This document shows positions 81-15,380 of a DNA stretch of 32,000 nucleotides, in pieces. This DNA is from an uncultured Chloroflexia bacterium (GTDB taxonomy: Bacteria; Chloroflexota; Anaerolineae; Anaerolineales; Anaerolineaceae): contig OY969938.1 in NCBI GenBank assembly GCA_963704755.1, positions 3,330,001 to 3,362,000 on the forward strand, written 5' to 3'. The notes under the pieces are model-generated. The model ran no database searches. It was not told the origin of the DNA and saw nothing but the letters and a program-made list of their open reading frames with translations. Positions within the stretch are counted from its first letter, which is position 1. Each line of letters opens with the position of its first letter. Both the position numbers and the translations under genes were made by a program.

Positions 81-737
81 TTAATTATATTGTAGAACCG
101 CAACTCCCGGGAATTCTTTGATATTTGATACATTAACATCTAGCTCCTTATAATTCTTTGCGTCTTTTTTTGAAACGGTTATAAATGGTTCGACCTTTTC
201 AAATATGAATCCGAGAATTCCCATCGCTTTCGTCCTGTAGTGCATCGGTATCACGACCGCCGGATTGAGCTGATTCATGACTTCCGCTGCGCCGCTGGCA
301 TCCAGTGTGGCGCCCCCTCCTATAGGAATAAGCAGTATATCCACTTTTCCAATTTCACTAATCTGTTCAAGACTCAACTGATGTCCCAGATCGCCGCAAT
401 GGCAGACATTTAATCCGTCTATCCTGAAATTATAGACGATATTTTTACCTCTTTTTTTCCCGGAAACATCATCATGAAAGGTCGGCACACCTTTAATCTC
501 GATGCCTTCCTGCGAAAATTCCCCTGGGTCTTTGATATGCACAAAGTCCCCCTTAACCGCGCCGACATTGTTATGATCGCCGTGACCGTGACTGACTGTG
601 ACGATGTGCGCGTCAATCTCCGGCAGTTTAAAGCCGGCCATAGCGCCAAACATATTGGAATACGGGTCCGTGACGATCTTAGTGCCGTTTTCAGCGGTGA
701 GCATGAAACACGATTGACCAAACCATTGTATTTTCAT
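81..737 (-). CDS. MBL-fold metal-dependent hydrolase
   Basis: 218-aa ORF with HxHxDH metal motif (SHGHGDH). AAGGAG lies 6 nt before the ATG at 737. It starts 19 nt downstream of the MFS gene on the same strand. Confidence 0.8.
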   Translation of the reverse strand: MKIQWFGQSCFMLTAENGTKIVTDPYSNMFGAMAGFKLPEIDAHIVTVSHGHGDHNNVGAVKGDFVHIKDPGEFSQEGIEIKGVPTFHDDVSGKKRGKNIVYNFRIDGLNVCHCGDLGHQLSLEQISEIGKVDILLIPIGGGATLDASGAAEVMNQLNPAVVIPMHYRTKAMGILGFIFEKVEPFITVSKKDAKNYKELDVNVSNIKEFPGVAVLQYN

Positions 738-756
738 ATGTATCTCCTTTCATTTA

Positions 757-2124
757 TCAAGCCTTGCTCGTGACCCATCGGTCTGTAACGGTTAAGAGCA
801 TCGCCAAGACGCTAACCGCAAGCATAATGATCGCAATAACATTGAGCCCGGAATCCGAAACACTCTTTTGAAAAACTATGCTGATTATGGCTGTTGAAGC
901 AATGGAACCTAAATATCCGGCAGTGCGGAAAAGTCCAGAAGCGGTTCCGAGCTGGTCTGCGGTAGACAGTTTATAAATGGCTGCTTGATTTCCGATAATC
1001 ATTGACCCCATCGTGACGCCGAATAAAACAGTGATTATCACAATGAATATGACCGAAGACGCCGTGGACAGAAAGAGAGCGCAAACAGAGGCAGCAATTG
1101 CGAATCCTGCAGCGATGAAGAGCGAACCGCGCACCATGTTTCTTCTGGATAACAAAAGCGCCACGACAGTTGAAACGATTACCATGGGCAACATAAGCAG
1201 TCCGGAGTTTGATGAACTTATTCCTTTTGCCACTTGCATCCATTCAGTCAGGCCATAAAGTATGGCGTAACTGCACAGCGTGAGTGCAGCAAAACGTATA
1301 TATGTACGCGTAATCGCCATATTCTTAGCAAGTAGGCGTACGTCTATGAATGGGTGTTTTACACGCAATTCCCACACAATCGATGCTGCACCGAAGATTA
1401 CGGTCAGAGCGAGAGGAATCCAAACGAAATGAGGCAGCGAGAATAGGAATATCAGGAGGGAAATCATTGTTCCCGCAAATCCGATGATTCCCATTCCATC
1501 AATACTGGAGAATACCTGGCCAAATGATTTAGCGCCATCGGTATGGATATCCCGGGGAATCCATAATATAGTTATGATAAATGCGACCAGTGCAAAGGGA
1601 ACATTAATAAAAAATGTCATACGCCATCCAACAAATTGTACGAGAGCTCCGCCAATCGGCAGTCCAATGATACTTGTAATCAGAGCAGCAATCTGAAGCG
1701 AGCCCAGTACATTTCCAGGCGGTTCGGATAGGCCGCCGGATTCAGCCCGTTGACGGATGATCAGCATGGATGATGGATAGGCTGTTGATGTGCCAATACC
1801 AATGAGAACCCTTGATATGATGAGCATAGTCAGATTCTGCCCAAATCCCCCGACTAAACCGCCCAAAAGTAAGATAATAATCCCGCTCAAAAATACCCGA
1901 CGCGGCCCTAATACTTCTGACAATTTTCCGGCGGTAGGCTGAGCAACCGTACAGGCCAGGTAGAGTACCGTGACTAATATGGTTACTTGAGCCACGGAGT
2001 TATTCATGAAATGAGCGATTGGTACTAAAGCAGTGGTAAGCAGCGTTGTATTTATAGGGTTAAGTGAAGACCCCAAATAAAGCGGCCACACAAATTTCCC
2101 TGGAAACAGCTTTTTATCCGGCAT
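757..2124 (-). CDS. MFS transporter, DHA2 (EmrB/QacA-like) drug:H+ antiporter type
   Basis: Very hydrophobic multi-helix ORF. Start trimmed from the track ORF (2202) to ATG 2124, which has GGAGGA 8 nt upstream. Confidence 0.75.
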   Translation of the reverse strand: MPDKKLFPGKFVWPLYLGSSLNPINTTLLTTALVPIAHFMNNSVAQVTILVTVLYLACTVAQPTAGKLSEVLGPRRVFLSGIIILLLGGLVGGFGQNLTMLIISRVLIGIGTSTAYPSSMLIIRQRAESGGLSEPPGNVLGSLQIAALITSIIGLPIGGALVQFVGWRMTFFINVPFALVAFIITILWIPRDIHTDGAKSFGQVFSSIDGMGIIGFAGTMISLLIFLFSLPHFVWIPLALTVIFGAASIVWELRVKHPFIDVRLLAKNMAITRTYIRFAALTLCSYAILYGLTEWMQVAKGISSSNSGLLMLPMVIVSTVVALLLSRRNMVRGSLFIAAGFAIAASVCALFLSTASSVIFIVIITVLFGVTMGSMIIGNQAAIYKLSTADQLGTASGLFRTAGYLGSIASTAIISIVFQKSVSDSGLNVIAIIMLAVSVLAMLLTVTDRWVTSKA

Positions 2125-2486
2125 ATGATTATTCCTCCGCGTACAATTCTGAGAATTGAGGCTTAACGCCTTTCCTCTTGCTAAAATAAAATCGACCTTC
2201 AATGGTTCATCTCAATAAATCCGGATAGGATCAGGCTGACGAGAATGACCGCCCCCAATTGAGTTCTTTGGCAGCTTTTGTGACCAGATCGGCCATTGGC
2301 GGGATCTGGTTTGCACCGGAAATCCGGTCGTGAATATACTGATAAAAACTCACCTCTAACTTCTTGGAAGTAGCGGCCAGAGTCGCGAAACAGATACAAA
2401 TTGACCCGCAAAAAATAAACGGAAATTGGCCCTTCTTAACGCCGAGAAAATCCCTGGCCAGGTTTGAAGTTGATTTTTACTAACCA

Positions 2487-2948
2487 TTATTTGTTTTCAT
2501 TCTTGGAGTCAAACTGTTCTAAAATGCGTTGCAGAGCTAAAAACGTGGTTTTAAAGGCCTCAATTTCGGCCATAGATAGCTGCTCGAACACATCCGTCAG
2601 GTATTCAACCTGCATCTGGCGGGCGGGTTGCCAATGGGCGCGCCCCTCTTCGGTAACCTTTAACAGGGCGCTACGCCGGTCTGCTGGGTCGGGAATTCTC
2701 TCAACCCAGCCGTGTTCGACCAATGATTGCACCTGTAAACTGGCCCCTTGGCGGGTTACGTTGATCTCCTGGGCCAGGTCGCTTAAGGTAATAGGCTGTT
2801 CGATCAGTTTGTCAAGGGTGCGGAGTTGGCTGAAAGTGATCTCATCCGCGATTTTTTGGTGAAATTGGTTCGTGATAAGGCGTTTAAAGCGTGGAAATAT
2901 GGTTAAAACTAATTCTGCGACCGATTGGGTGCTTTCTTTTGTGTCCAT
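2487..2948 (-). CDS. MarR family transcriptional regulator
   Basis: 153-aa ORF with a winged-HTH MarR pattern (..LSDLAQEINVTRQGASLQVQSLVEHGWVERIPDPADRRSALLKVTEEG..). GGAGGA precedes the ATG. Confidence 0.85.
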   Translation of the reverse strand: MDTKESTQSVAELVLTIFPRFKRLITNQFHQKIADEITFSQLRTLDKLIEQPITLSDLAQEINVTRQGASLQVQSLVEHGWVERIPDPADRRSALLKVTEEGRAHWQPARQMQVEYLTDVFEQLSMAEIEAFKTTFLALQRILEQFDSKNENK

Positions 2949-2977
2949 TTAGTCCTCCAAATAAGTCAAGTTGCCGG

Positions 2978-3006
2978 ATTATAGACCAGTTGACAATATA
3001 TGTCAA
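2978..3006 (-). promoter_or_regulatory. Consensus sigma70-type promoter for the MarR gene (TTGACA-N17-TATAAT)
   Basis: Minus strand reads TTGACA (3006-3001), a 17-nt spacer, then TATAAT (2983-2978), about 30 nt upstream of the MarR ATG. Confidence 0.7.
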
Positions 3007-3044
3007 GTTAATTGACAGTCAAGTATATTGACATAATAAGTCAA
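2990..3044. promoter_or_regulatory. Three TTGAC..GTCAA inverted repeats (putative MarR operators)
   Basis: TTGACAATATATGTCAA (2990-3006), TTGACAGTCAA (3012-3022) and TTGACATAATAAGTCAA (3028-3044). The first overlaps the -35 box and spacer. Confidence 0.5.
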
Positions 3045-3213
3045 TTGGAGGATTCTTTTTGCCGCTAATAAAAATCGAAATAGGCGGCTAAAGGAGTATT
3101 TATGGTCGAGATAAATATTGAAGAACATTCCGCCCTGCTAGTGATGGATGGGCAGACTGCACCGCTTTTTTCAGCGGAGATCATTATCCCCCTATCATAA
3201 TCATATTTGCAAA

Positions 3214-3318
3214 CAAAAAGCGCCTTCCATTTGTTGGAAAGCGCCACAATCTTATTGCTAATTTTAGTGAAATAGAATCGGCCTAAACTTGTACCCGTAT
3301 ATACAACTCGGTCCGCGC
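3214..3318 (-). repeat. DT unit copy A (DUF35-tail mimic plus terminator hairpin)
   Basis: Minus strand reads GGA CCG AGT TGT ATA TAC GGG TAC AAG TTT AGG CCG ATT CTA TTT CAC TAA (GPSCIYGYKFRPILFH*) with no start codon. It is followed by the hairpin GCGCTTTCCA-N5-TGGAAGGCGC and T5. Confidence 0.7.
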
Positions 3319-3402
3319 CTAACGCACAGTGTCTATCGGATCATCGTTTTCTCTTTGTGGTTCGGTTCGCATTCATTTTCAACAAATCTCTTCGCAAACT
3401 GC

Positions 3403-3428
3403 GAACTTTTTCAGGTAGGATTCCGTAA
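3403..3428 (+). promoter_or_regulatory. ECF-type promoter candidate (GAAC-N17-CGTAA)
   Basis: GAAC at 3403-3406 and CGTAA at 3424-3428, about 30 nt upstream of the sigma factor ATG. This matches the general ECF -35 GAAC / -10 CGT pattern. Confidence 0.4.
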
Positions 3429-3459
3429 TAGCTTATTGAGTCCAACTGGTGAACCTTTG

Positions 3460-4029
3460 ATGACAGATCCTTTAAGTGATGAGCAGATTATTGCCCAGGT
3501 GATGCTGGGAAAACGAGCGTCCCTGGAGATCCTTGTAGAACGGTACCACAAGCTATTATTCGGTTACCTTTACCGTTTGACAAACGGCAACCGTCCCCTG
3601 GCGGAAGATCTGGTCCAGGAGACGTTCCTTCGCGTGCTCCAACAAGATTCCTATCAAACCCAACGGCCGTTCAAACCCTGGTTGTATTCGATTGCCACCC
3701 ATCTGGCTTACGATTATTTCCGTTCTGCACAGGCGCGACGAACGATCAATACAGATGAAAACGGCTTTTCCGATTGTGCCGATCCTCAGCCTGCTCCGGA
3801 AGAAATTGCACAGACAGTGGACGAGGGCGAAGTAATTGCGTCTGCGATTGGCCAGTTAGGAGAAGAGTATCGCGCCGCCTTATTTTTGCGATTTTATCAG
3901 GGATTATGTCTGCAAGAAATTGCCCAGACACTGCAGATCCCGCTGGGGACGGTGAAATCACGCCTTTCGGTAGGCGCCGCGCGCCTGCGGGAGCTTCTGG
4001 TGGATTATGAAAAAGGAGAAGAACGATGA
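3460..4029 (+). CDS. ECF (sigma-70 family group 4) RNA polymerase sigma factor
   Basis: Region 2 (LVERYHKLLFGYLYRL..AEDLVQETFLRV) and region 4 (LRFYQGLCLQEIAQTLQIPLGTVKSRL) are recognisable. Start trimmed to the internal ATG at 3460 because the 5' part of the track ORF runs through DT copy A. Confidence 0.85.
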   Translation: MTDPLSDEQIIAQVMLGKRASLEILVERYHKLLFGYLYRLTNGNRPLAEDLVQETFLRVLQQDSYQTQRPFKPWLYSIATHLAYDYFRSAQARRTINTDENGFSDCADPQPAPEEIAQTVDEGEVIASAIGQLGEEYRAALFLRFYQGLCLQEIAQTLQIPLGTVKSRLSVGAARLRELLVDYEKGEER

Positions 4030-4898
4030 AAGATTTCACCTATTCGTGGCCTTTGGATCAAGAGGACCATCTGGCAGACGCGCTGCGGGAACAAGGAACG
4101 CCGGAAGAGAAGATCCCCGAACTGACCCAATCCCTGATGCGGCTGAAGGAATGGCAGGCCCCCACCCTCACCGCTGGCGATTCCCGGCAGTTGGTCGAAC
4201 GTTTAGCCTCGCACCTGCCGGCAGTATCCGATATTCGCCGAGCAGTCCGCAACCATCCTCCGGGCCTTCTAGGCGAATTCGTAGATCTGCTCAGGTTGGT
4301 CCAGACCCAGGTCAGCCTGTTCCAGATGTCCTTCTGGTTGGCGTCATCGGTGATCATCCTGCTTGGCGGCCTGTTGATCCTGAGCGGCCCAATATTGAAC
4401 CCCACATTTTTGTTACAGGTGATCGGTCCTTTGCTTAGCTATCTTGGAATAGCCACGGCATTCCGAGGCAGCGGGTTGCACATGCTGGAATTCGAGCTGG
4501 CTTGCCCGCCCTCTCCACGCCAATTGACCCTGGCCCGCCTGGTGATTGTACTTTGTTACGATATCGCCCTGGGCCTCTTTTTGTCGCTCGTCCTTCGGGT
4601 TTCGAGTAATTTTAGCTTCTGGCTGATCACCCTGCACTGGTTGGCGCCACTCCTCCTGGGCACGGGATTGACCTTGCTGCTCTCTTTGCGCATTCCGGTC
4701 TCCCGGGCAGCAGTCATCAGTTACGTCGGCTGGCTGGTGGTCCTGGCTTCGGCGTTGATCGAACAGAACAGCGTGCAGACCTCGGTCAGCGTCTTCTCCG
4801 GCCTGACTGAACTGGGGTTTGGCCTGGCGGGCCTGGCAATGCTGGTTGGAGTGATCCTCTGGCTGCCGAAGACCGTTCAGTGCATGCTGCCTGGCTAG
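4026..4898 (+). CDS. Multi-pass membrane protein, putative anti-sigma factor
   Basis: The ATG overlaps the sigma stop (ATGA). About 90 aa of soluble N-terminus are followed by about six hydrophobic helices. No zinc anti-sigma motif was seen, so the call rests on position only. Confidence 0.45.
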   Translation: MKDFTYSWPLDQEDHLADALREQGTPEEKIPELTQSLMRLKEWQAPTLTAGDSRQLVERLASHLPAVSDIRRAVRNHPPGLLGEFVDLLRLVQTQVSLFQMSFWLASSVIILLGGLLILSGPILNPTFLLQVIGPLLSYLGIATAFRGSGLHMLEFELACPPSPRQLTLARLVIVLCYDIALGLFLSLVLRVSSNFSFWLITLHWLAPLLLGTGLTLLLSLRIPVSRAAVISYVGWLVVLASALIEQNSVQTSVSVFSGLTELGFGLAGLAMLVGVILWLPKTVQCMLPG

Positions 4899-5009
4899 TC
4901 GATACGGGCTGCGAACCTTTTTGCCAGCTTCTCCGTAACAGTTACTGCAGACGCTGATCGACCATTGTTCACGAAAACGAAGCGTGAAGCGGTCTGTAAA
5001 GGAGAATTC

Positions 5010-5930
5010 ATGCAAATAACTCAATCCAAAACTGGGGCAGGCGGGATCGTACCGATCCCTATCGAACCGGTCTCCGCCCTGACCAGAACCCTTCAAGTGA
5101 CTGGCTGGGAATGGAAGCATTTTCTCTCCAACCGGTCGAGCTGGATGATTGGCGGTGCGGCGTTCTGTTTTTTCACCGGGCTGCTCGCCGTACGTAACCA
5201 GTGGGGCGCTGTATTGGGGACGACAGCTCTGGGACAACTGGCTGAACTGGTGTACGACCTGATGCTGATTTTCGGTGTCATGCTCCCATTCCTGGTGACC
5301 GACCAGGTGGCTCACGACTACCAGGAGCGCATGCACGAACTGCTCATGACCACCGCTATTCCTACCAGCATCTACGTACTCGGGCGCTACCTGGCCGCAG
5401 TGTTGATCAGCTTTTGCCTGGGGCTGGCATTACTGGCGGCGCAGCTCCTGGTCAATCTGGCCTTACCGTTTATTTACCCAATCTATCCGGCGGTAAACGC
5501 TCTCACCACGCTGTCTCTGTGGGCGCGCCTGACCCTTCCGGCCGGGTTACTGGCCGGCAGCTTGTGTTTTTGCCTGGGGACACTCTTCCCTCGCGTCACG
5601 GCCGTCCCCAAAATTGCTACCAGCCTGGCCTGGGTCATCCTGGCGCTTGATAATGATCCTACCGACCTGACCTGGCGCGCTTATTGGAATCCCACCGGGG
5701 CTGGGATGATCACCCTGGCCTACAAACACTTCCAGGACCTGGCTGAAGCCGGTTTGAAGACGGCTCTCAATCCTGCCGGAGGATCGGAACTGATCTTACA
5801 CCTGCAGCAGAATCTCCCCGACCTGCAGCCCTGGTTGGCGCCGTTCCTGGCGCTGGCAGGGATCGGCCTGCTGCTGGGCCTCCTAACGGTGGCTGGTTTC
5901 CGGCGCTTTCGCAGCAGCATGAACGCTTGA
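5010..5930 (+). CDS. ABC-2 type transporter permease
   Basis: Hydrophobic ORF. AAGGAG lies 6 nt before ATG 5010. It is a paralogue of the next gene (VTDQVAHDYQERMHELLMTT vs VTEGASRDYRQRIHEVLMAT). Confidence 0.65.
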   Translation: MQITQSKTGAGGIVPIPIEPVSALTRTLQVTGWEWKHFLSNRSSWMIGGAAFCFFTGLLAVRNQWGAVLGTTALGQLAELVYDLMLIFGVMLPFLVTDQVAHDYQERMHELLMTTAIPTSIYVLGRYLAAVLISFCLGLALLAAQLLVNLALPFIYPIYPAVNALTTLSLWARLTLPAGLLAGSLCFCLGTLFPRVTAVPKIATSLAWVILALDNDPTDLTWRAYWNPTGAGMITLAYKHFQDLAEAGLKTALNPAGGSELILHLQQNLPDLQPWLAPFLALAGIGLLLGLLTVAGFRRFRSSMNA

Positions 5931-5940
5931 AGAGGAACCC

Positions 5941-6849
5941 ATGAAGACCAAACCATTTATTCTCAGCCGGGCGGATGATCTATCCGCGAACCCCCCCAGT
6001 CCTTTGTTCAGCGTCTGGGGATGGGAGTTGAAGCGTATATTTACTAAACCCTTGAATTGGGGATTCGCCCTGGGTAGTTTCCTCTTTTTTGGCGCGATGA
6101 TGTGGTTCAAACATGCCTGGACATTGGGGACGGAAAGTGGGACACGGTTTACCCTATACGGCACGAGCGCGTTCGGCCTGTTCTACGAATTCACCGTGGT
6201 CTTGATGCTGGTGTTTGCATTCATCCTGCCATTCGTGGTCACCGAAGGAGCTTCGCGGGATTACCGGCAGCGCATCCATGAGGTATTAATGGCCACTCCC
6301 CTGCCGGGCCAGGCGTACGTCTGGGGACGCTTCCTGGCCACCCTCACGCTTGCCATAGGGCAGGCAGTTCTGATGGTGGTTGCAGCGTGGTTGATGGGCA
6401 CGATCCTACACCTTCGAAACGGGTTCTACCCGCAGCCAACTTGGCCGAACCTGATCACTGCCTGGGGGCTGGTCGTCATCCCGGCGACGATCTTGATCGC
6501 AGGCCTGGGGTTCAGCTTGGGCACACTCTGGCCGCAGCGGACTCGCCTGATCATGCTGGGGTTGTTGATCGCCTGGTTATTATTCTTCACGGTAGGCGAC
6601 ATCTTGAGTGTCAATCCAACCGGTGTCAGTATATTAGGCACACAGATCTCCCGTCTGGTTCAGGCGGCAAACGCGCAGTTGGCCTCGATCCCGGCGGATC
6701 AGCAAGCCGCCTGGCTCGAACGGCTCCAGGTTGCCTCGCCAGATGTGAGCGGTTGGTGGCTGACCCAATACGCCCAGGCGGCGCTTGGGATTATATGCGT
6801 GGTCGTCGCTGCTGCCGGATTCCGGCGCTATCGAAAAGAAGTAGATTGA
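5941..6849 (+). CDS. ABC-2 type transporter permease (paralogue)
   Basis: 302-aa hydrophobic ORF with GAGGA upstream. It shares a loop motif with the preceding permease. Confidence 0.65.
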   Translation: MKTKPFILSRADDLSANPPSPLFSVWGWELKRIFTKPLNWGFALGSFLFFGAMMWFKHAWTLGTESGTRFTLYGTSAFGLFYEFTVVLMLVFAFILPFVVTEGASRDYRQRIHEVLMATPLPGQAYVWGRFLATLTLAIGQAVLMVVAAWLMGTILHLRNGFYPQPTWPNLITAWGLVVIPATILIAGLGFSLGTLWPQRTRLIMLGLLIAWLLFFTVGDILSVNPTGVSILGTQISRLVQAANAQLASIPADQQAAWLERLQVASPDVSGWWLTQYAQAALGIICVVVAAAGFRRYRKEVD

Positions 6850-6866
6850 AGAAAAGAGAGCCAAAA

Positions 6867-7751
6867 ATGGAACTGCACATCGAGCACTTGAGTAAACAAT
6901 ATGGCCGTCATCCGGCCTTGAAAGGGATTTCACTTACCTGCAGCAACGAAATGGTCGGGTTGGTTGGGCCGAATGGCGCCGGAAAGACCACCCTGATGCG
7001 CATCCTGGCCACCCTCATCCCCCAGACTGCCGGAAAAGTCACCTGGAACGGGAAGGATATCCATGAGGATCCGCAGGCCCTCCGCCGGGTGCTGGGTTAT
7101 TTACCCCAGGAATTCGGTCTCTATGAAGAATTCAGCGCGCGGCAGATCCTCCGTTACCTGGGTGCCATGAAAGGACTGCCGGATACACTCGCCCGGCGTA
7201 GGGTGGACGAATTGATCGAGCTGGTCAACCTGGAAAAAGACGCCGATCGCAAGCTTAAGACCTATTCGGGTGGGATGAAGCAGCGGGTTGGCATTGCACA
7301 GGCGCTCTTGAATGACCCGGAGCTGCTGATCGTCGACGAACCCACTGCTGGATTGGATCCGGCTGAGCGGGTACGCTTCCGCATGCTGCTTGCCAGCCTG
7401 ACCGCCGAGCGTCTGGTGATCCTCTCGACCCATATCATTGGTGACGTCGAGGCTGTCGCCAGCCGGCTGGTCGTGCTGAACCAGGGAGAAATTGTCTCCG
7501 ATACGCCCCCTGAAATGCTGTTGAGCGCCGCCAAAGGCCAGGTGTGGACGGTGACCACGGACCCCGAAACAGCCATTCGCATTCAGAGCGCTTATCAGGT
7601 GAGCGCGATGGTCCAGCAGCCGGGCGGCGTCATGCTACGGATCGCCAGTCACGAGCGCCCACACGAAAGTGCAGTTCCGGTGGAACCCACTTTGGAAGAT
7701 GCCTATTTACTGGTGGTTGGGGAACAATTGGAACAAGAAAAGAATTTGTAG
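6867..7751 (+). CDS. ABC transporter ATP-binding protein
   Basis: Walker A GPNGAGKTT, signature YSGGMKQRV and Walker B LLIVDEPTAGLD. Start trimmed to MELHIEHL (6867), because the track ORF 5' extension overlaps the permease. Confidence 0.9.
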   Translation: MELHIEHLSKQYGRHPALKGISLTCSNEMVGLVGPNGAGKTTLMRILATLIPQTAGKVTWNGKDIHEDPQALRRVLGYLPQEFGLYEEFSARQILRYLGAMKGLPDTLARRRVDELIELVNLEKDADRKLKTYSGGMKQRVGIAQALLNDPELLIVDEPTAGLDPAERVRFRMLLASLTAERLVILSTHIIGDVEAVASRLVVLNQGEIVSDTPPEMLLSAAKGQVWTVTTDPETAIRIQSAYQVSAMVQQPGGVMLRIASHERPHESAVPVEPTLEDAYLLVVGEQLEQEKNL

Positions 7752-7787
7752 TTAATGGGATGGTTTGGTAATCTTTTCGAAATAAAG

Positions 7788-7819
7788 CAGCGACCCGTTG
7801 AGATTTTCACGGGTCGCTG
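7788..7819 (+). terminator. Hairpin downstream of the ABC operon
   Basis: CAGCGACCCGT-N10-ACGGGTCGCTG, 37 nt after the stop. The T tract is weak. Confidence 0.45.
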
Positions 7820-7875
7820 TTGCATATTCATAGTATTTGAAAACGACCATAACTTAGCGATGATTTTGTCACAAA

Positions 7876-7980
7876 ACAAAAAGCGCCCTCCATCTCTGAA
7901 GAGCGCTTCAATTGTCTCAGGATTTTCTCTACTGCATCACCGGATGGAACTTATACCCGTATATCCGACTCGGTCCACAC
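7876..7980 (-). repeat. DT unit copy B
   Basis: Minus strand reads TAG TGT GGA CCG AGT CGG ATA TAC GGG TAT AAG TTC CAT CCG GTG ATG CAG TAG (CGPSRIYGYKFHPVMQ*), preceded by an in-frame stop and with no start codon. It is followed by the hairpin GCGCTCTTC-N7-GAGGGCGC and T5. Confidence 0.75.
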
Positions 7981-8005
7981 TAGAGAGGTCAAATTGCGAA
8001 TTGGT

Positions 8006-8581
8006 TTATTCCATTCCTTTCAAAGCACGCTCCAGCAAATCGCTTACTTTTAGTTCATTCGCCCATTTCTTCAAATAAATCAGGTCGAGCCCACTGGCGC
8101 GAGTTTTCAGTACACCAAGGATGTCACGCCATTGACGCTCAGACACCTCGCCGCCAAGACGATACCACTCGAGTTTTGCCAGGATCGTATCTTCAGGGCT
8201 GCTAAACTTTGCGCTTACCTCTTTCTCAAAAAGAAAGGTTTGCTTTTGAGCGCGGTCCAGTTGCAATTGTAAAAAGGGACGGGGATGAGGAATGAAAATA
8301 TCCACCTTGAACATGCTCTCACGATGGATGATGTTAAAACTGGAGTGGCGCTGTATGGATTGGGCAATCATCTCTTCATCCACATAGAATTCGTCTTGTT
8401 AGGCTGAAACAAACCGTTGAAGATGTTCCAATTGCATTTCTGCCACGATGTCTGAATCCTGGGTAGTTCGCACCATGCCATAAAGGGTGCTGGCAAGTGA
8501 ACCGCCAATAAAATATGGGATGTTTAGTTTTTCGAGAACCTGTGTGACCCGGATGGTGACTTCGATCGGTTCATTTTGCAT
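8006..8581 (-). pseudogene. Nucleotidyltransferase-fold protein interrupted by one in-frame TAA
   Basis: The N-terminal ORF (8399-8581) carries GGSLASTLYG..TQDSDIV (NTase GS..DxD pattern). The C-terminal ORF (8006-8383) is in the same frame. The halves are separated only by TAA at 8399-8401 plus 5 codons (..FVSA*QDEFYVDEEM..). Confidence 0.6.
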
Positions 8582-8825
8582 CGGGAAGGTCTCCATAGAC
8601 CTTACATGCGATTTCTTCACCAAGCAATAGGCCTGCCAGTCTGCGTTTTAGCTCGGCATCGCCAGCCAGGGGATATTGCTTCCGTAAACCGGCTAAGGCT
8701 AACAAACGGGCCGATTGGTTGAGCTGCGCCAACATTTGCATTTTCCGAGTGGGGCTCGCTGCCCGCCATAAATCAATTTGCAAGGCTTCCATTTTGGGAT
8801 GGGTATCCGGGAATAAGGCGGCCAT
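8571..8825 (-). CDS. Small conserved hypothetical protein, partner of the nucleotidyltransferase
   Basis: 84-aa ORF whose stop overlaps the NTase ATG (ATGCAAAATGA). This is a two-gene, TA-like layout. Confidence 0.5.
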   Translation of the reverse strand: MAALFPDTHPKMEALQIDLWRAASPTRKMQMLAQLNQSARLLALAGLRKQYPLAGDAELKRRLAGLLLGEEIACKVYGDLPDAK

Positions 8826-8949
8826 TTGCTTTTTATTCCTTTCGTGACGGCAATTTCGTCTTCCTTTAGATTACAGAGGCTATAAGCTCAAGCGCCAATT
8901 TATTTTCATTTGTTATTGTATGATTTAATTTTACCTGAAATGGAAATGG

Positions 8950-9054
8950 GAAGCACCCTCCATATTCAGGAAGGCGCTTTTGTAATCGGAATTTGCCGTG
9001 GACCAGCAAGCGCCGGGTTAAATTTATACACGGATATACGACTTGGTCCACACG
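8950..9054 (-). repeat. DT unit copy C (stop codon lost)
   Basis: Minus strand reads TGT GGA CCA AGT CGT ATA TCC GTG TAT AAA TTT AAC CCG.. (CGPSRISVYKFNPALAG..). It is followed by the hairpin AAGCGCCTTCC-N7-GGAGGGTGCTT. Confidence 0.65.
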
Positions 9055-9074
9055 GCTGATGTGAGAGTTTCAAT

Positions 9075-9200
9075 CTAACGGCTTGCTGGTGGGTGGGCGG
9101 GACGAGATAAAACTTCGAGAGCAGGATTCTATTCGGATGTAGAAAAAAGCCCGAAAATGGCGCGGAATCCCACCCGTCAAAAGCGTACTTTGTTGGGCGC
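9075..9200 (+). repeat. R2 repeat copy 1 (~130 nt)
   Basis: CTAACGGCTTGC..GGTGGGTGGGCGGG..~70 nt..TCCCACCCGTCAAAAGCGTACTTTGTTGGG. It aligns along its length with copy 2. Confidence 0.6.
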
Positions 9201-9271
9201 AATCATGAAACGCTAGAACTCGCTGGCTAAGAATCAAATCTTACTCCAATTCTTAAACGACCAAACTCTAA

Positions 9272-9748
9272 CTATTTCTTAGCATTTGCAAGGTGCTGTT
9301 GTGCGAGGGCGATAAATTGCTGTCTGTGTTCTGAACTTTTGAAAGCATTTTCTGGAATTGTGAATGCGTTTGAGTTCTTGCCAGTAATGATGACTCTATC
9401 TGGAGTTGTAGAAATGCTGTCAACGGCTTTCCAAAGGATTTTGTCTTCCTTCTTGCCAATTTTCGTTTCAATTCCTTCTTCGTTTATTGACAAAACTCTT
9501 TTCTGCGTTTTTGCGGTGACAAAACTTAAGCCAGGAATTGCCAAAATAATGCCAACGGCAAACATAATCGCAACGACAAAATCATTCAGGTTTAGATTGC
9601 CTTGAATGCAATAGTGGAGGAATAAATAATAAGCGGAAAATAAAAAAGCCGCCCCTAGAACAATCAATCTCGTTCTAGATGAGTTTCTGAGGTTGAAAAA
9701 ATATGCTTTGACCAAATCCATTCGCTTGATTCGATATTCAATGACCAT
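9272..9748 (-). CDS. YcxB-like membrane protein
   Basis: 158 aa with two N-terminal TM helices and then a soluble domain, the layout of the YcxB family. GGAG lies 6 nt upstream of the ATG. Confidence 0.55.
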   Translation of the reverse strand: MVIEYRIKRMDLVKAYFFNLRNSSRTRLIVLGAAFLFSAYYLFLHYCIQGNLNLNDFVVAIMFAVGIILAIPGLSFVTAKTQKRVLSINEEGIETKIGKKEDKILWKAVDSISTTPDRVIITGKNSNAFTIPENAFKSSEHRQQFIALAQQHLANAKK

Positions 9749-9779
9749 TATTGCTCCAATGTTTTATCGTATTTGTGCG

Positions 9780-9911
9780 CCCAACGGCTTGCGTTACCCG
9801 CGTGTGGGCGGGTGTGGGCGATGCCTGGGGGCAGGAAAAACCCGAAGCGAGGTAAATGTCAGAATAGCCGCACGCGAAGAGTCCCACCCATCAAGTGCAC
9901 GCTTTGTTGGG
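9780..9911 (+). repeat. R2 repeat copy 2
   Basis: CCCAACGGCTTGCGTTACCCGCGTGTGGGCGGG..GTCCCACCCATCAAGTGCACGCTTTGTTGGG. It is a direct repeat of copy 1 and the two flank the YcxB-like gene. Confidence 0.6.
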
Positions 9912-10087
9912 AGGACTTTTGGGGCTGAAATCAACCCCAAATGCATAACCGATACTTCCAAAAATTTTTAACAGCCTGGAGACTGGTTAAGTCGCCGCAT
10001 CGTGCCAGCCTGATAGACTGCGTTTTCCTTGAACGACAATCCGGGAAAGCTAGCAAAATAGCCATTTCGTGATGTCAGGCTTCGCCC

Positions 10088-10654
10088 CTAGGTCGGAAGT
10101 AGATCAGATAGCTGGTGCTCGAGTTCGTTGTAAACAGCGTCTGCCTCGGCTCCCAGGGCGTTGAATGTCTTGCTAGCAAAGCTACGCATCGTTGCCGTCA
10201 GCGTAATGTCGAGGATTTCAACATCTTCAAGACCCAACGCACGCAGCGCATCAACATCCGCTTGAGTCATTTCGTTGGCGTTCCGTGCAACTTTCTGGGC
10301 GAATTCCATCATTGCAACCTCAACGCTTTCCAACCCCGCGTCATGGAAATTTGTGAGGATCGCACGCAACTGATCTACACTGACCCCGTTCTTGTTCAAG
10401 ATTGCGCCATGAGCAAGCAGGCAGTAACGACAATTCAAGGCCATCGCAGCAGCGAACGTGACCAACTCGTAAGGTCTCAATCGCAAGTTCTTGCGAATGC
10501 TGGCTTGAAAGGTGCGCCATGCTTCCAACACCTCAGGGCGCAGGCTGAAGACTTTGGCGTGATTGGGCACGTACCCCATACTCTTTTGGTCGCCTTCGTA
10601 GATCTCAAGGAGCTTACCCTCAGCCCCCGCTTCCGAAATGGTTTGAATGTACAT
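10088..10654 (-). CDS. Carboxymuconolactone decarboxylase / AhpD-like family protein
   Basis: CxxC..H motif (NCRYCLLAHG) typical of the family. Start trimmed to MYIQT (10654), which has GGAGGA 5 nt upstream. Confidence 0.8.
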   Translation of the reverse strand: MYIQTISEAGAEGKLLEIYEGDQKSMGYVPNHAKVFSLRPEVLEAWRTFQASIRKNLRLRPYELVTFAAAMALNCRYCLLAHGAILNKNGVSVDQLRAILTNFHDAGLESVEVAMMEFAQKVARNANEMTQADVDALRALGLEDVEILDITLTATMRSFASKTFNALGAEADAVYNELEHQLSDLLPT

Positions 10655-10692
10655 GAATTCCTCCATTAATTCCTCGCTTGTCCTCTGTGCTG

Positions 10693-10730
10693 CCCAACGG
10701 TTTGCGTTACTGGCTGGTGGGCGGTGTGGA
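10693..10730 (+). repeat. R2 repeat, 5' half only
   Basis: CCCAACGGTTTGCGTTACTGGCTGGTGGGCGGTGTGG matches the 5' part of R2 copies 1 and 2. No 3' half was found nearby. Confidence 0.45.
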
Positions 10731-10868
10731 CAAGCAATCAATGTAGTTATGGTTTGGGTTCACCTTTGAACCTTCCAATTATTCATAGAGACCAAATTCC
10801 ACCATATCCATACTTATACCTCAAAATAAACAACTTGCTCAAAACGAAAGTGTATCTTAAAACCATTA

Positions 10869-11215
10869 TTACCTGATAATCTCCGAAATCCCCCGAACAT
10901 CCCTTTCCAAATTCTCCATCACATCATTATTCCAGAACCGCAACACCTTATACCCTTATGCCTCAAGATAAGCCGTGCGTTCGGCGTCATATTCCTGCTG
11001 ATCCAGATGCTGGCTGCCATCCAGCTCGATGATTAACTTTTATTTTGGAGCAACACGCTTCCAGTGGGCAGAGCCAAGTCCACGATGTAAGGCCCGATGG
11101 CATGCTGGCGGCGAAGTTGTGGTGCAGTTTGGACGAATTCTTGAATATGGAAATGCTGGTTCGCCGGTGATTCATTCACCCCCTCCTGCCTCCCCCATTT
11201 TTATTCCAAAAATAG
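10869..11215 (-). pseudogene. DUF559 (Vsr-like endonuclease domain) gene remnant
   Basis: Minus strand gives ..LRRQHAIGPYIVD.. in one frame. After a frameshift near 11031-11050 it gives KLIIELDGSQHLDQQEYDAERTAYLEA*GYKVLRFWNNDVMENLERDVRGISEIIR*, with an in-frame TAA at 10956-10958. Confidence 0.6.
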
Positions 11216-11368
11216 GGGGGAGCGCTTTTAATCAGGGATCGTTTGCAAATTTAAATTTACACTTTTTCATTATATAATCTGAGCGAGGCCACTCCCTCTC
11301 TAAAATTCGAAGGATTTTGCGCTTCCAGCGGGCAAAGCCGGTGAGGGCCAGGGATGGGCGGGGTGAAT

Positions 11369-11398
11369 TAAAAGCGCCCTCCATCTCTGAAGAGCGCC
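11369..11398 (-). terminator. DT-type terminator hairpin (copy D) after the methyltransferase gene
   Basis: AAAAGCGCCCTCCATCTCTGAAGAGCGC is 28/28 identical to the hairpin of DT copy B. It lies 12 nt after the stop at 11410. Confidence 0.7.
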
Positions 11399-11409
11399 TC
11401 TTCCTCATT

Positions 11410-12156
11410 TCACCGCTGCATCAGCGCGAACACCCCCCATCCCATATACTCCCGCGTATAAGCGGCATAGCGTCTCGGCTCCGAGGTCAGTTGGGCGCGG
11501 ACCTCTTTTGCGAGATCGTCATCCGGATTGTCTTCCAGCCACCGGCGCATCGTCAGCCATTTGGCCGCCTCGTAGCGGTCCCAGCCATCTTGGTCAGCCA
11601 GAACCATTTCGACCACGTCGCAGCCAAGGCGGTCGAAAAACTCGAGCAGTTCTGGAAGCATCAAAAATTCGGAGATCGATTCGGCCTGGCACCACCGGGC
11701 AACCTCTTCCGTCGGCGGGATTTTCCGCCAGAACGGCTCGCCGATCAGGAGAATCCCCACAGAGCGCAGGCTGCGTGCCAGAAGCTCGATCGTGCCGGCC
11801 ACACCTCCGCCGATCCAGGTGGCGCCCACACAGGCAGCCACATCGACCTTCTCGTCAGAAACATAGCCGGCAGCATCGTTGTGAATGAACCGGACCCGAT
11901 CGGCAACACCGAGTTCTTCAGCCCGAAGTTTGGCCTGCTCGGTGAACAACGGGCTCAGGTCGATACCGGTGCCGGTGATGCCGTAATCGCGTGCCCAGGT
12001 GCACAGCATCTCCCCCGAACCGCTGCCGAGGTCGAGCACCCGCTCCCCCGGTTTCATCCGCAGCGCCGCGCCGAGCGTGGCCAGCTTATCGGCTGTGATC
12101 GGGTTGTGAATGCGGTGAGCACTTTCCGTGACGTTGAAAATTCGTGGTATGTCCAT
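11410..12156 (-). CDS. Class I SAM-dependent methyltransferase
   Basis: Motif I VLDLGSGSG. Start trimmed to MDIPRIF (12156). No clear SD. Confidence 0.8.
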   Translation of the reverse strand: MDIPRIFNVTESAHRIHNPITADKLATLGAALRMKPGERVLDLGSGSGEMLCTWARDYGITGTGIDLSPLFTEQAKLRAEELGVADRVRFIHNDAAGYVSDEKVDVAACVGATWIGGGVAGTIELLARSLRSVGILLIGEPFWRKIPPTEEVARWCQAESISEFLMLPELLEFFDRLGCDVVEMVLADQDGWDRYEAAKWLTMRRWLEDNPDDDLAKEVRAQLTSEPRRYAAYTREYMGWGVFALMQR

Positions 12157-12239
12157 TGTGAAAAAGTTACTTACAGGTGAATATAAGAAAATAGATCCCG
12201 CCCTCGTTAAAGTATACTTCCGAAAGAATCCGTTAATGA

Positions 12240-12306
12240 CAAAAACGCCCTCCATCGGGGGGTGCTTCTTCCGTGTCTTCGGTGTATTCCGTGGTTAAAT
12301 TTCTTG
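12240..12306 (-). repeat. Degenerate DT unit (copy E, internal deletion)
   Basis: Minus strand reads GGTGGATGACAAG-AAATTTAACCACGG. This resembles copy C (TGTGGACCAAG..TATAAATTTAACCCGG) minus about 16 nt. It is followed by the weak hairpin CACCCCCC-GAT-GGAGGGCG and T5. Confidence 0.35.
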
Positions 12307-12326
12307 TCATCCACCAGGAAAAGGCA

Positions 12327-12677
12327 TTACCCGTTGGCGCGGAAATATTTGGCGCGAATAAACGCATTCATTTTGTCGCGCGATGATGTTCCGTCACCTC
12401 GGTATGGCTGGACAGTTTCACAGGTTTCGTATTCTTCGCAAGTTGCACAAAAATCTTTGCCTTTCGCCAGCGCACATGAACGGATTGTACAGTGCGAGCA
12501 ATCTGTTGCTATAAGTTTTAGATCGGGATACTTGCAACCCAAACAGACAAAGTCGATCGCATCCGTTTTCTCATTACCGAATTCACGATTTATTTGATTA
12601 AGGAGGATGCCATTTCCAGTGACCGTCCCTTTGAATGAAGGACATTCTTCACAATTAATGCCGCAATGCGCAATCAT
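12327..12677 (-). CDS. DUF3795 domain (Cys-rich, metal-binding) protein
   Basis: Starts MIAHCGINCEECP.. and carries further CxxC pairs (CLGC, CSHCTIRSC, CATC). GGAGAG lies 5 nt upstream of ATG 12677. Confidence 0.7.
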   Translation of the reverse strand: MIAHCGINCEECPSFKGTVTGNGILLNQINREFGNEKTDAIDFVCLGCKYPDLKLIATDCSHCTIRSCALAKGKDFCATCEEYETCETVQPYRGDGTSSRDKMNAFIRAKYFRANG

Positions 12678-12845
12678 AGTTCTCTCCATCGGCAGCACGC
12701 TGAATCTCATCTGGCTATTGACTGAAAGGTCAGCCGTTTCATGAGCGACTGATTCGTTCCCGAAATATCGAAAAACCGCTAATAAGCCGCGCTGAATGCC
12801 GGCCTCTCGACAAAGCTCCCAGAGTCACATTATATTATGGGAATC

Positions 12846-12950
12846 AAAAAGCGCCCTCCAGAAATGGAAAGCGCTTCGTCTGTGTTTATCGTTTTTTTCT
12901 TGGTCTATCTCAAAACCGGCCGAAACTTATACCGATAGATTTGATTTACC
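12846..12950 (-). repeat. DT unit copy F
   Basis: Minus strand reads ATC TAT CGG TAT AAG TTT CGG CCG GTT TTG AGA TAG (IYRYKFRPVLR*). It is followed by the hairpin GCGCTTTCCA-N4-TGGAGGGCGC and T5. Confidence 0.65.
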
Positions 12951-12975
12951 GAATTTTTGGATAGTAATTTCTGCT

Positions 12976-13021
12976 TGAAAAAGATGAGTTCACCCTGGCA
13001 CCACCCTCCAGGGCAGGTGAA
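12976..13021 (-). terminator. Hairpin plus T run downstream of the WYL regulator gene
   Basis: Minus strand reads TTCACCTGCCCTGG-N9-CCAGGGTGAA followed by CTCATCTTTTTC. Confidence 0.45.
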
Positions 13022-13114
13022 TACGAACCCACCAACTTAATCCCTACATTAACATGACCCGGTAAATTGTTCTGGAAAACTTTATTTACAGTAAGCTAAA
13101 AGAGGACCAATGTT

Positions 13115-14071
13115 CTATAGAGCGAATTGTTCCAGTAGATCACGCGCTTGTGCTGCGACCGCCTTTTTCAACTCGCAAGGCTCCAAAATCTCTACAAAAC
13201 CAGACAGGCCAAAGACGAGCATTTTCGCCTGCAAGTCAGAATCCAGGGAGAGGGATATTGTCTTCCAGCCCCTATCCTCTGCATCGGCATTCATTTCCCA
13301 ACGCCCAGGCATTAGCGTTTTGACAAACGATATTCGGTCCGGGTGAACCCGTAGGGTGCAATGATAACCTGATGAAAAAATTTCCAGGTTCTGCGTGTGC
13401 GAACGCCAGTAAGTCGGCAGGTCAAAATCGGGGCGGCGCGTAAACGATCCATCGAGCAGTTGCATTGAATGAAAACGATTGACGCGATATATACGCAGCT
13501 CCCCGTCGCGTTCGGCGAGTAAATACCAAACACTCGACTTGCAAATCAGGCTATACGGGGCCAGCGTACGCTCTGCAATATCACCATCATAATTCTCGTA
13601 CTGTGCTTTGATCATTCTGTCTTCATATACAGCCCGCTGAATCTCCTCCCAAAAAGGCGAGATCGAAGCGTCATGCCACCACCACGTTGGGTCTATCATC
13701 AGGCGTTGGCGAATATGATCGGCGGTGGAATGATGCGCATTGGGCAGAGCCGCCAATAACTTAAGCAAGAGGCGTTCTCCGGCGTCCCCCAAACCCACGT
13801 CGCGCAAGGCTTCATTGTTGTTGGTGACGAACAGGCTTTGCACTTCTAACGTATTTAAGCCCGTTAGCGTAGTGCGATACGCCTCGGCGAGCGCAATCCC
13901 GCCTCCATGCCCGCCTTCGCTGTAAACAGGTACGCCTGAAAACGATAACGCATTGATATCGCGCAGGATCGTTCGGCGCGAGACCTCTAATTCTTCCGCC
14001 AATGCTTTGGCGGTCATCTTGCCGCGCGTTTGCAGCAATAGAATGATAGACAATAATCGGTCGGCTCGCAT
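13115..14071 (-). CDS. YafY-type HTH / WYL domain transcriptional regulator
   Basis: N-terminal HTH (MRADRLLSIILLLQTRGKMTAKALAEELEVSRRTILRDINAL) and a central WYL-type region (SVWYLLAERDGELRIYRVNRF). Start trimmed to M10, which has GAGGAA upstream. Confidence 0.85.
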   Translation of the reverse strand: MRADRLLSIILLLQTRGKMTAKALAEELEVSRRTILRDINALSFSGVPVYSEGGHGGGIALAEAYRTTLTGLNTLEVQSLFVTNNNEALRDVGLGDAGERLLLKLLAALPNAHHSTADHIRQRLMIDPTWWWHDASISPFWEEIQRAVYEDRMIKAQYENYDGDIAERTLAPYSLICKSSVWYLLAERDGELRIYRVNRFHSMQLLDGSFTRRPDFDLPTYWRSHTQNLEIFSSGYHCTLRVHPDRISFVKTLMPGRWEMNADAEDRGWKTISLSLDSDLQAKMLVFGLSGFVEILEPCELKKAVAAQARDLLEQFAL

Positions 14072-14158
14072 CGCGTTTTCCTCATTCTTGGGTGACATAA
14101 GGTGTCACCCAATGAAATGTATCATCAAAATATATCAGAAAACAAAAGGAAAAACGAA

Positions 14159-14983
14159 ATGATAAAAACAACTAAAAATTATTTTGATTTGGGGGATGGG
14201 CAATTGTATTACGAGACTGCAGGCACGGGAATACCGCTTGTTTTATCGCATGCCGCCTTCCTGGACAGCGGAATGTTCGATGCCATCTGGGAGCAGTTGG
14301 CCAAAGAGTTCCGTGTGATTCGATACGACCTGCGCGGCTTCGGGAAGTCCAGCCCAGTACCGAGTCCGCTTGCAAGGCGTTACGATCTGGACCGCCTGTT
14401 AGCCCACCTGGACGTGGATCATGCGCATCTGGTTGGTTGTTCCCTCAGCGGAGAGATCTGTCTCGATCTGGCGCTCGAACAACCGCATCGTTTCAGATCC
14501 TTAACCCTGGTGGGCTCAACCCCGAGCGGCTTTCAAATGCAAGGAGAACCTCCGCGCAATTTATTGGAAATGTTTGCCGCTTTGCAAAGCGGCAATTTTG
14601 ACCACGCCAACGAACTTCAAATCCGTATCTGGCTGGACGGTGAACATCGGGAACCAGGCCAGGTCGACTTGAATTTACGAAAAAAAGCATTAGAGATGAA
14701 TCGGATTCCTGTAACCCAAAATACGTTCTTTATCTCCGATATGCAACCAACTCACCCACTTGACCCACCCGCCATTACCCGATTGGAATCGGTCATATGT
14801 CCTACATGGATTGTCGCCGGAGCGCTCGATAATTCCGAGGTCTTGCGCGCGGCTGATGAAATGGTCAAACGGATTCCCAACGCGCGAAAAACGATTATCG
14901 AATCCACCGGGCATGTTCCCAGCTACGAACAGCCCGATATTTTTGTCAAAATGTTACTGGATTTTCTGAGCAGAATTAATTAA
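14159..14983 (+). CDS. Alpha/beta hydrolase
   Basis: Nucleophile elbow GCSLSG and C-terminal His (STGHVP). Start trimmed to MIKTT (14159), which has AAGGA upstream. Divergent from the WYL regulator. Confidence 0.85.
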   Translation: MIKTTKNYFDLGDGQLYYETAGTGIPLVLSHAAFLDSGMFDAIWEQLAKEFRVIRYDLRGFGKSSPVPSPLARRYDLDRLLAHLDVDHAHLVGCSLSGEICLDLALEQPHRFRSLTLVGSTPSGFQMQGEPPRNLLEMFAALQSGNFDHANELQIRIWLDGEHREPGQVDLNLRKKALEMNRIPVTQNTFFISDMQPTHPLDPPAITRLESVICPTWIVAGALDNSEVLRAADEMVKRIPNARKTIIESTGHVPSYEQPDIFVKMLLDFLSRIN

Positions 14984-15275
14984 TCTAAGGTGCTGCCTTA
15001 TCTAAAAACCCATTCATTTTTCATTCCCGAAGGACAACGGGACAGTGTACGGTGGGCTTTATTGGCAACGAAGCAATCTCAATTCATACCCAGGCGATTG
15101 CTTCGAAAGACTCCCGCCATGTACCCTCACAGAAGCCAGGCAGAGTTGGGAGGATAGGAGGGGGGTGGGTGAAAGCAAAATGTTAAGTTTAATAAATATT
15201 TTGTATTTCACACCGCAGACCACCCCCTCTGGCATCCCACCCATTTTCAAAAAACAGAAAATGGAGGAGAAAACC

Positions 15276-15380
15276 AAAAAGGCGCCCTCCACGCATTCGC
15301 GGAGAGCGCCTCATCATTTTTAAAAATTCTTACTGCATTACCGGCTGGAACTTGTACCCGTACATCCGACTCGGTCCACA
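15276..15380 (-). repeat. DT unit copy G
   Basis: Minus strand reads TGT GGA CCG AGT CGG ATG TAC GGG TAC AAG TTC CAG CCG GTA ATG CAG TAA (CGPSRMYGYKFQPVMQ*) with no start codon. It is followed by the hairpin GGCGCTCTCC-N10-GGAGGGCGCC and T5. Confidence 0.75.

Follow-up and report, generated by a model that had tools for sequence, protein, structure and literature searches.

A repeat at a mevalonate-pathway locus of an Anaerolineaceae genome probably represents displaced 3′ ends of a DUF35 gene

The short repeat that recurs through this 32,000-nucleotide stretch of DNA (the window, taken at its full length) is probably the displaced 3′ end of a DUF35 gene, with successive accessory modules joining at a conserved core and pushing the old tails downstream; we put the probability of this reading at roughly three in four. 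Each displaced piece would consist of the last 10–13 codons of DUF35, the stop codon and an intrinsic terminator, and the landing point would be a 15-nt core that encodes YGYKF. An incoming module of 1–11 kb, without a recombinase of its own, would join at the core and bring a replacement tail and terminator, such that DUF35 would stay intact; the previous tail and the older modules would be shifted downstream, where old tails would decay. In the inferred order of events, the newest module would be the one that adjoins the gene. Synonymous differences between copies would represent standing polymorphism among DUF35 alleles, and non-synonymous differences would represent later decay.

The resident DUF35 gene is the last in an operon that runs HMG-CoA reductase, HMG-CoA synthase, thiolase and DUF35, in a host genome of 4.87 Mb and 54.8% G+C. 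A complex of thiolase, HMG-CoA synthase and DUF35 protein is familiar. A Pfam scan assigned a Zn-ribbon (PF12172) and an OB-fold (PF01796) to the resident protein, and its nearest homologues are, by name, those of Bellilinea, Thermanaerothrix and Anaerolinea. One study describes DUF35 proteins in complex with thiolase and HMG-CoA synthase (PMC12960953). The spacer between the thiolase gene and DUF35 (18053–18505) is unusually long at about 450 nt, and contains GT-rich inverted repeats (repeat families D3, D7 and I2–I6).

On the minus strand at 7979..7929, the repeat CGPSRI-YGYKF-HPVMQ-stop stands where the sequence-only reading of this DNA had placed it: CGPSRIYGYKFHPVMQ and a stop, with the codons TGT GGA CCG AGT CGG ATA TAC GGG TAT AAG TTC CAT CCG GTG ATG CAG TAG, are followed by a G+C-rich hairpin with a T-run at 7909..7880. 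The degenerate core TAYGGNTAYAARTTY, allowing at most one mismatch, has 5 matches in the window, every one of them on the minus strand, where shuffled sequence would give 0.01; a sixth copy, C (core at 9020–9034), is more decayed than the other five. The six window copies are co-oriented, and one of them is the true end of the DUF35 gene. Three further copies lie to the left of the window at genome positions 3329965 (35 nt from the window edge), 3329107 and 3328273, bringing the genome overall to about ten copies, nine of which are co-oriented within 19.4 kb downstream of DUF35. The build of the unit is constant, with the core, a short tail and a stop followed, after about 20–25 nt, by the G+C-rich hairpin and its T-run. 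Over a stretch of 31 nt the terminator of partial unit D matches the copy B terminator at 97% identity (11370–11400 versus 7879–7909), and unit D looks like either a unit that is missing its core or a gene fused onto the tail of such a unit. A stray copy at genome position 659551–659570 (minus strand; L047, about 9551) reads ..IYRYKFRPMLK-stop with a terminator, and no DUF35 gene is near it. Around it is a 31-kb island of low G+C (about 655–686 kb), and close to the end of that island there is an ORF for a 469-aa tyrosine recombinase (685458–686009).

Table 1. Resident DUF35 gene, displaced units and intervening modules, listed downstream from the gene in window coordinates.
Feature	Position	Strand	Description	Basis
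Resident DUF35 gene	17654..18052	-	132 aa; PF01796 and PF12172	Pfam; sequence; operon neighbours
Resident core	17672-17686	-	YGYKF	Sequence
Resident tail (copy H)	17654-17671	-	RPILR-stop	Sequence
Terminator of resident unit (copy H)	17599..17631	-	Intrinsic terminator	Alignment of units
Module 1	15381..17598	-	NmrA-like and AraC regulator; 42% G+C	Pfam
Remnant G	15276..15380	-	Class I arm CGPSRM 15363-15380; core 15348-15362	
Remnant G, distal part		-	Tail QPVMQ-stop 15330-15347; terminator 15279-15312	
Module 2	12961..15275	.	Alpha/beta hydrolase and WYL regulator	Pfam
Remnant F	12846..12960	-	Class II arm ..CCAAAAATTCGGTAAATCAAATC; core YRYKF 12923-12937	
Remnant F, distal part		-	Tail RPVLR-stop 12905-12922, then terminator	
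Module 3	9055..12845	-	DUF3795, methyltransferase, CMD, YcxB; two attC-like R2 repeats	
Partial unit D	11369..11420	-	Methyltransferase gene end ..ALMQR-stop and terminator; core absent	
R2 repeats (module 3)	9075-9200; 9780-9911	-	Half copy near 10693-10730	
Remnant C, decayed	8950..9054	-	Class I arm 9035-9052; core SVYKF 9020-9034	
Remnant C, distal part		-	Tail NPALAGPRQ.., stop lost, then terminator-like hairpin	
Module 4	7981..8949	-	84-aa ORF and nucleotidyltransferase-like ORF split by a stop	
Remnant B	7876..7980	-	Class I arm CGPSRI 7962-7979; core YGYKF 7947-7961	
Remnant B, distal part		-	Tail HPVMQ-stop 7929-7946; terminator 7880-7909	
Module 5	3319..7875	+	ECF sigma factor, membrane protein, two ABC-2 permeases, ABC ATPase; 56% G+C	
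Remnant A	3214..3318	-	Class I arm RGPSCI 3300-3317; core 3285-3299	
Remnant A, distal part		-	Tail RPILFH-stop 3264-3284; terminator 3219-3245	
Module 6	1..3213	-	MarR, MFS transporter, metallo-beta-lactamase-fold protein; ends at the remnant 35 nt left of the window	

The sequence-only reading had pointed to differences between copies that mostly preserve the amino acid, and the codons that it listed are all correct, both for the tails (Arg as CGA, CGG or AGG; Leu as TTG or CTA; Pro as CCA or CCG; Val as GTG or GTA; Phe as TTC or TTT; Lys as AAG or AAA) and for the arm that precedes the core (CCA versus CCG, CGT versus CGG). The excess of third-position and synonymous change holds in a codon-aware count with more copies, in which each of 29 remnants was set, core and tail, against its closest match among 94 distinct resident sequences. 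The 197 differences fall on codon positions 1/2/3 as 58/39/100 (chi-square p = 3.6e-7), and 95 of the 197 are synonymous versus 22% expected from random mutation (binomial p = 2e-15); both p values are optimistic in that related copies are treated as independent, while the direction of the effect is unambiguous. The YGYKFRP codons of 28 resident DUF35 genes of relatives show zero non-synonymous changes, their variation being confined to third positions and a synonymous CGN/AGR switch. Allele ratios are given here for residents versus remnants (28 each): TAC:TAT 21:6 versus 21:7 and TAT:TAC 19:9 versus 20:8 for the two Tyr codons, AAG:AAA 20:8 versus 19:9 for Lys, and TTC:TTT 20:8 versus 21:7 for Phe. 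Changes private to the remnants are even across codon positions (distinct alleles minus one = 13/9/12). Because of this even spread, the pattern is two-layered, with synonymous polymorphism inherited from translated alleles and, added once a tail had been displaced, changes that look like neutral decay. Several remnants differ from a resident allele purely or almost purely synonymously (synonymous/non-synonymous 5/0 in L036_7482, 3/0 in L053_353, 4/0 in L055_2511 and 6/1 in L090_15512). From proximal to distal, the non-synonymous counts in this genome are 1, 2, 6, 3, 7, 3, 9 and 6, suggesting that decay tends to grow with distance from DUF35 (rank correlation, rho about 0.71 with n = 8).

The 120 nearest homologues without exception close with ..RG[IML][IL][IV]YGYKFRP and a hypervariable tail of 2–18 aa, and the 107 resident genes compared at the DNA level have the same C-terminal pattern. 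When the remnant tails were set against these orthologue C-termini, every tail type of the window was found among residents: RPVMQ, RPVMQH and RPVMQG match the tails of copies B and G; RPILR, RPVLR and RPVLK those of copies H and F; RPILFHEN.. that of copy A; RPVLAGPR that of copy C; and RPVMR that of the copy 35 nt left of the window. The division of tails into two classes stands inside the window and fails beyond it, where there are ten or more tail families. Within a tail family the variation is again synonymous, as for AVRA, which is written GTC CGA GCT, GTT CGA GCC or GTA AGA GCG; members of a family differing in this way implies that the tails were, or are, translated.

Comparison within the genus located the break in conservation. 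Mean pairwise identity is 0.65–0.80 along the gene body and 0.80 at the core, falling past the core to 0.55 and then, from about +24, to the random level of 0.27–0.30. In three close species pairs, the identity over 366 nt of gene body is 97.5%, 94% and 92.6%, and over the next 60 nt it is 37%, 18% and 22%, respectively; differences are sparse to +17 and dense from +22, and the tails themselves differ (VLAGPR, VMR, AVARAITAD). The sister-species comparison found no divergent patch upstream of the core, which disfavours homologous recombination alone, with crossovers at any point along the gene. The resident tail does not follow the phylogeny of the gene body, and the break coincides with the insertion point. 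The tail has been replaced, together with cargo, at the core, repeatedly and horizontally. Shared synonymous alleles, the matches to orthologue tails and this swapping of tails bear out the earlier proposal that the remnants are displaced, once-translated DUF35 C-termini or element-borne substitutes for them.

The arm upstream of the core differs in kind from the tail. The sequence-only reading had counted CGPSR to the DUF35 C-terminus, and here it was mistaken: GPSR occurs in 0 of 120 homologues and 0 of 107 resident genes, and in several copies the reading frame closes between one and a few codons before the arm. The lack of GPSR in orthologues and the closed frame make CGPSR a conserved distal arm of the modules or cassettes rather than a DUF35 end. 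The accompanying remark that CGPSR varies at third positions proved sound, in that the variation is codon-like across 19 copies from 9 genomes; minority counts by codon position are 13/4/32, and all four third bases occur in the Arg codon CGN of xGPSR(I/M), a pattern for which a mere binding site offers no explanation. In one relative (G010), a remnant has the arm's upstream part (..CTCACCTCCACCGCG) fused straight to CGG CAT CAT AGT C.., the gene's own RGIIV, and the arm in another genome (G229) reads DDGSNRM, resembling the DG(D/N)ERG of DUF35. Taken together, the joint and the resemblance suggest that the arm may be an old, diverged copy of the last stretch of DUF35. Both arm classes are unique to the DUF35 locus in this genome, and class II arms appear to derive from class I arms by deletion. 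Several genomes have an attC-like R′ box (GTTAGAT or GTTAAAT) immediately before the class I arm.

Some units allow the arm and the tail to pair, as do copy C (8990–9059; GTGGACCA ... TGGTCCAC), L036:18401–18470 and L032:10069–10138, whose fold z-scores are -2.0 to -2.4; the paired units show apparently compensating changes between genomes. An arm–tail hairpin was rejected as a general attC-like feature; a few units reach z = -2.4, -2.0 and -1.7, and most are at about 0. A protein search for GPSR arms with an 84-aa query, limited to its last 40 residues, gave no candidate, and ordinary DUF35 proteins with the same C-terminal words were likewise not returned by it, which makes this negative uninformative.

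The modules parted by the units in this genome are 1–4.6 kb long and carry unrelated cargo, with G+C contents from 42 to 56% (Table 1); module 5 has the opposite orientation. The nucleotidyltransferase-like ORF of module 4 is interrupted by a single in-frame stop at 8399–8401 (ORFs 8399–8623 and 8006–8383). One module can occupy different array positions in different genomes, as for module 4, whose counterpart immediately follows the resident DUF35 in G005 and lies further down the array in G012. A Pfam scan of about 50 module ORFs returned regulators, transporters, type I restriction-modification, AbiE, a two-component system, ferritin, a SUFU-like protein and others; Abi systems and toxin–antitoxin pairs also belong to the accessory cargo. 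The first gene of a fresh 1.8-kb module directly behind the resident DUF35 tail on metagenome contig L119 (1674–2408) encodes a GIY-YIG nuclease domain, and is the sole nuclease-like gene among about 20 modules.

The layout recurs among relatives. The class I arm–core junction (GGACCGAGTCGNATN-TAYGGN..) is present in 8 of 23 genomes of the genus, invariably on the DUF35 contig, downstream of the gene and co-oriented with it, and a reversed control pattern gave 0 matches. Relatives hold 1–5 remnants each, and further ones, with a third arm type among them, come from metagenome contigs. Two other Anaerolineae families share the layout: G229 has its DUF35 at C20:31457–31840 with four downstream remnants and the arm GSNRM, and G241, whose DUF35 is 60% identical to that of this genome, has a class I arm 5 kb downstream. 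Recent events are apparent in G014, where a direct repeat of 173 bp at 94% identity flanks 8.6 kb and starts inside the core, and on L119 and L065, where 1.8-kb modules are flanked by near-identical direct repeats that start in the core. Junctions are mostly at the core, and some remnants carry from 10 to more than 120 extra codons. In G016 (L035, G016:C7, oriented 510–740) DUF35 codons 65–126 are displaced with a 21-nt insertion inside the core, at G009:C182:5399–5623 there is a whole decayed DUF35 copy, and the G010 remnant includes about 10 extra DUF35 codons; left edges as variable as these do not arise from a single exact crossover. Replacement is not limited to the last codons in every event.

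We searched for the enzyme that might move these modules. A search of this whole genome placed no PF00589 or PF00239 gene closer than about 300 kb to the array, and the nearest match to PF00589 is at genome position 3,992,700; no PF00589 gene is near the arrays on the array contigs of five other genomes, and a Pfam scan found no recombinase gene among the about 50 ORFs of about 20 modules. A TIGR02249 search of 23 genomes of the genus detected no intact IntI at the family cut-off. A truncated intI in G014 (L038, G014:C11; 863–1237, plus strand) matches TIGR02249 positions 1–125 at E = 1.3e-38 and has an internal TAG; it comes immediately past the distal DUF35 remnant, with a GNAT gene after it and a RibD_C gene on its other side, where cassettes would be expected. 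No copies of the unit were found near the other intI relics (G020:C4, G003:C3 and G005:C18).

Traces of integrons are nonetheless visible inside the arrays. In module 3, the R2 repeats have ends that fit attC boxes (GCCCAAC ... GTTAGAT/GTTGGGC) and form hairpins that are long and imperfect; they bracket the YcxB-like gene and follow the CMD gene. Relatives of R2 number at least four between resident and remnant in G006, and they also occur beside the intI relic in G020. Module 3 looks as though it embeds a small integron cassette array, and integron cassettes therefore belong to the cargo of the arrays. An integron-type integrase is one candidate for the enzyme. The units themselves, examined as attC sites, have no RYYYAAC/GTTRRRY pair and no consistent hairpin (z mostly about 0), and neither known RNAs (Rfam) nor tRNAs were found. 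Our literature search returned no report of integration at DUF35 and only a passing mention of Anaerolineae integrons.

How the modules join is less certain than that the tails are displaced. The mechanism we prefer, at close to even odds, is site-specific recombination at the core by a trans-acting recombinase that would be encoded elsewhere in the genome, with the conserved arm upstream of each remnant core serving as the element-side half of the site; SCC-like elements without ccr at rlmH and CIMEs beside ICEs accumulate in this manner. We favor it because the break at the core is sharp in independent species pairs and recent repeats start in the core, and because the arm is conserved across host families whose DUF35 is only 60% identical. 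It is unlikely, by comparison, that the arrays reflect an undescribed capture system at the DUF35 end, common to Anaerolineae bacteria and without a recombinase in cis, whose dedicated enzyme would recognize the YGYKF core and the arm and swap tails with cargo; that enzyme could be a host recombinase, an integron-type integrase acting at G/TT of AAGTTY, or a nuclease. If such a system were real, the codon-like variation of the GPSR arm would imply that the arm is also translated at some stage of the cycle.

The main rival, equally unlikely in our estimate, is a homing-type replacement of the 3′ end, akin to WHO elements or intronless homing, in which a nuclease would cut sensitive DUF35 alleles at the core. 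Repair would then copy from the donor a resistant tail, the attached cargo and, as second homology arm, a tail fragment located downstream, shifting the old tail further along; synonymous recoding of the core would then confer resistance to cutting. The WHO/FBA1 architecture is alike in having its 3′ end replaced, the old end pushed rightwards and a duplicated 3′ fragment as second homology (PMC7282813). Homing would account for the missing integrase, units of 100–173 bp are long enough for homologous recombination, the resident and remnant of recent events differ mainly within the core, the variable left edges of some remnants suit recombinational repair, and the fresh L119 module opens with its GIY-YIG gene. 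However, a nuclease-like gene is present in only 1 of about 20 modules, the sister species show no co-converted divergence upstream of the core, and the core polymorphisms are ordinary synonymous alleles of residents with no evident split into sensitive and resistant forms. Still more doubtful is an integron-linked capture, with an IntI of the genus using the core G/TT (AAG/TTY) as an attI- or attG-like site and the array acting as an unusual integron platform. The G014 intI pseudogene, which shares a contig with DUF35 and comes just after the distal remnant, the R2 repeats with attC-like ends and hairpins that flank single genes in module 3 and recur in G006 and G020, and the R′ box directly before the class I arm in several genomes all speak for it. 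But the units lack attC boxes and have hairpin z values mostly about 0; insertion by attC × core recombination would destroy the F-R-P codons, an outcome never seen among 120 homologues and 107 residents; most arrays have no intI nearby while other intI relics have no unit copies; and an intact IntI was found at cut-off in 0 of 23 genomes.

Two further explanations have very little to recommend them. That the units are a non-coding dispersed repeat of the REP, MITE or terminator type, resembling a gene end by chance, would fit the terminator hairpin in each unit and the stray copy at 659551; it is very hard to square with copies confined to one locus and one orientation, with variation that is triplet-periodic and synonymous, with tails that equal real orthologue C-termini, and with the absence of an Rfam match. 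The sequence-only reading had likewise denied that these are copies of a non-coding repeat, and the reading-frame signal, the single locus and the lack of an Rfam family agree with it. A silent store of tails from which the DUF35 C-terminus would be switched in a programmed way, as in shufflons or pilin variation, is similarly far-fetched: many in-frame alternative tails do lie co-oriented in cis and the resident tail is hypervariable between species, but many remnants are decayed (stops, lost core residues), the tails are 2–18 aa without a conserved feature, recombination between co-oriented repeats would delete the cargo, and no invertase or recombinase was found near the array.

The codon pattern makes these short repeats a readable history, in which the end of an essential mevalonate-pathway gene has been overwritten repeatedly and each overwrite has brought new accessory genes. 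Anaerolineae are abundant in sludge and sediments. The collecting of genes at DUF35 resembles integrons and SCC islands with no enzyme visible, and it recurs across Anaerolineae families; identifying the enzyme would define a new route of gene capture. The sharp break at the core offers a simple marker for such flexible islands in metagenomes.

Several known systems share parts of this architecture. In the SCC and pseudo-SCC islands of staphylococci, elements insert serially at the last codons of rlmH (orfX), each restoring the gene end, and SCC-like elements without ccr stack at the rlmH 3′ end, many of them depending on a recombinase in trans. In both cases, gene-end repeats in direct orientation divide the tandem elements, many of which have no recombinase of their own; the DUF35 arrays differ in that no Ccr-like serine recombinase or other recombinase was found in or near them, in that the repeat unit includes the full terminator, and in their Anaerolineae host and DUF35 target. 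In the icd gene of E. coli, e14 and phage 21 supply a substitute 3′ end with mostly synonymous differences and leave a displaced pseudo-end at the far junction, and CIMEs, att-flanked and without an integrase, accrete beside ICEs. There, in contrast, an integrase is identifiable in the element or in the neighboring ICE, and arrays of nine or more units are atypical. With integrons and CALINs the DUF35 arrays share stacks of small, recombinase-less cassettes, and attC-like repeats and intI relics lie in or beside them; the boundary repeat, however, is a gene tail with a terminator and not attC, and the modules comprise 1–10 genes in either orientation. WHO elements of the yeasts Torulaspora and Lachancea have repeatedly replaced the 3′ end of FBA1, an essential gene, with the old ends decaying downstream, the newest element adjoining the gene, and the gene end fast-evolving and phylogenetically discordant (PMC7282813). 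The DUF35 end is likewise replaced and discordant, and its old 3′ ends are displaced and decayed, whereas WHO elements encode an endonuclease and DUF35 modules carry ordinary cargo and almost never a nuclease, and the displaced coding piece is about 50 nt at DUF35 versus about 400 bp in WHO. The DUF35 arrays are a variation on these known systems of 3′-end replacement.
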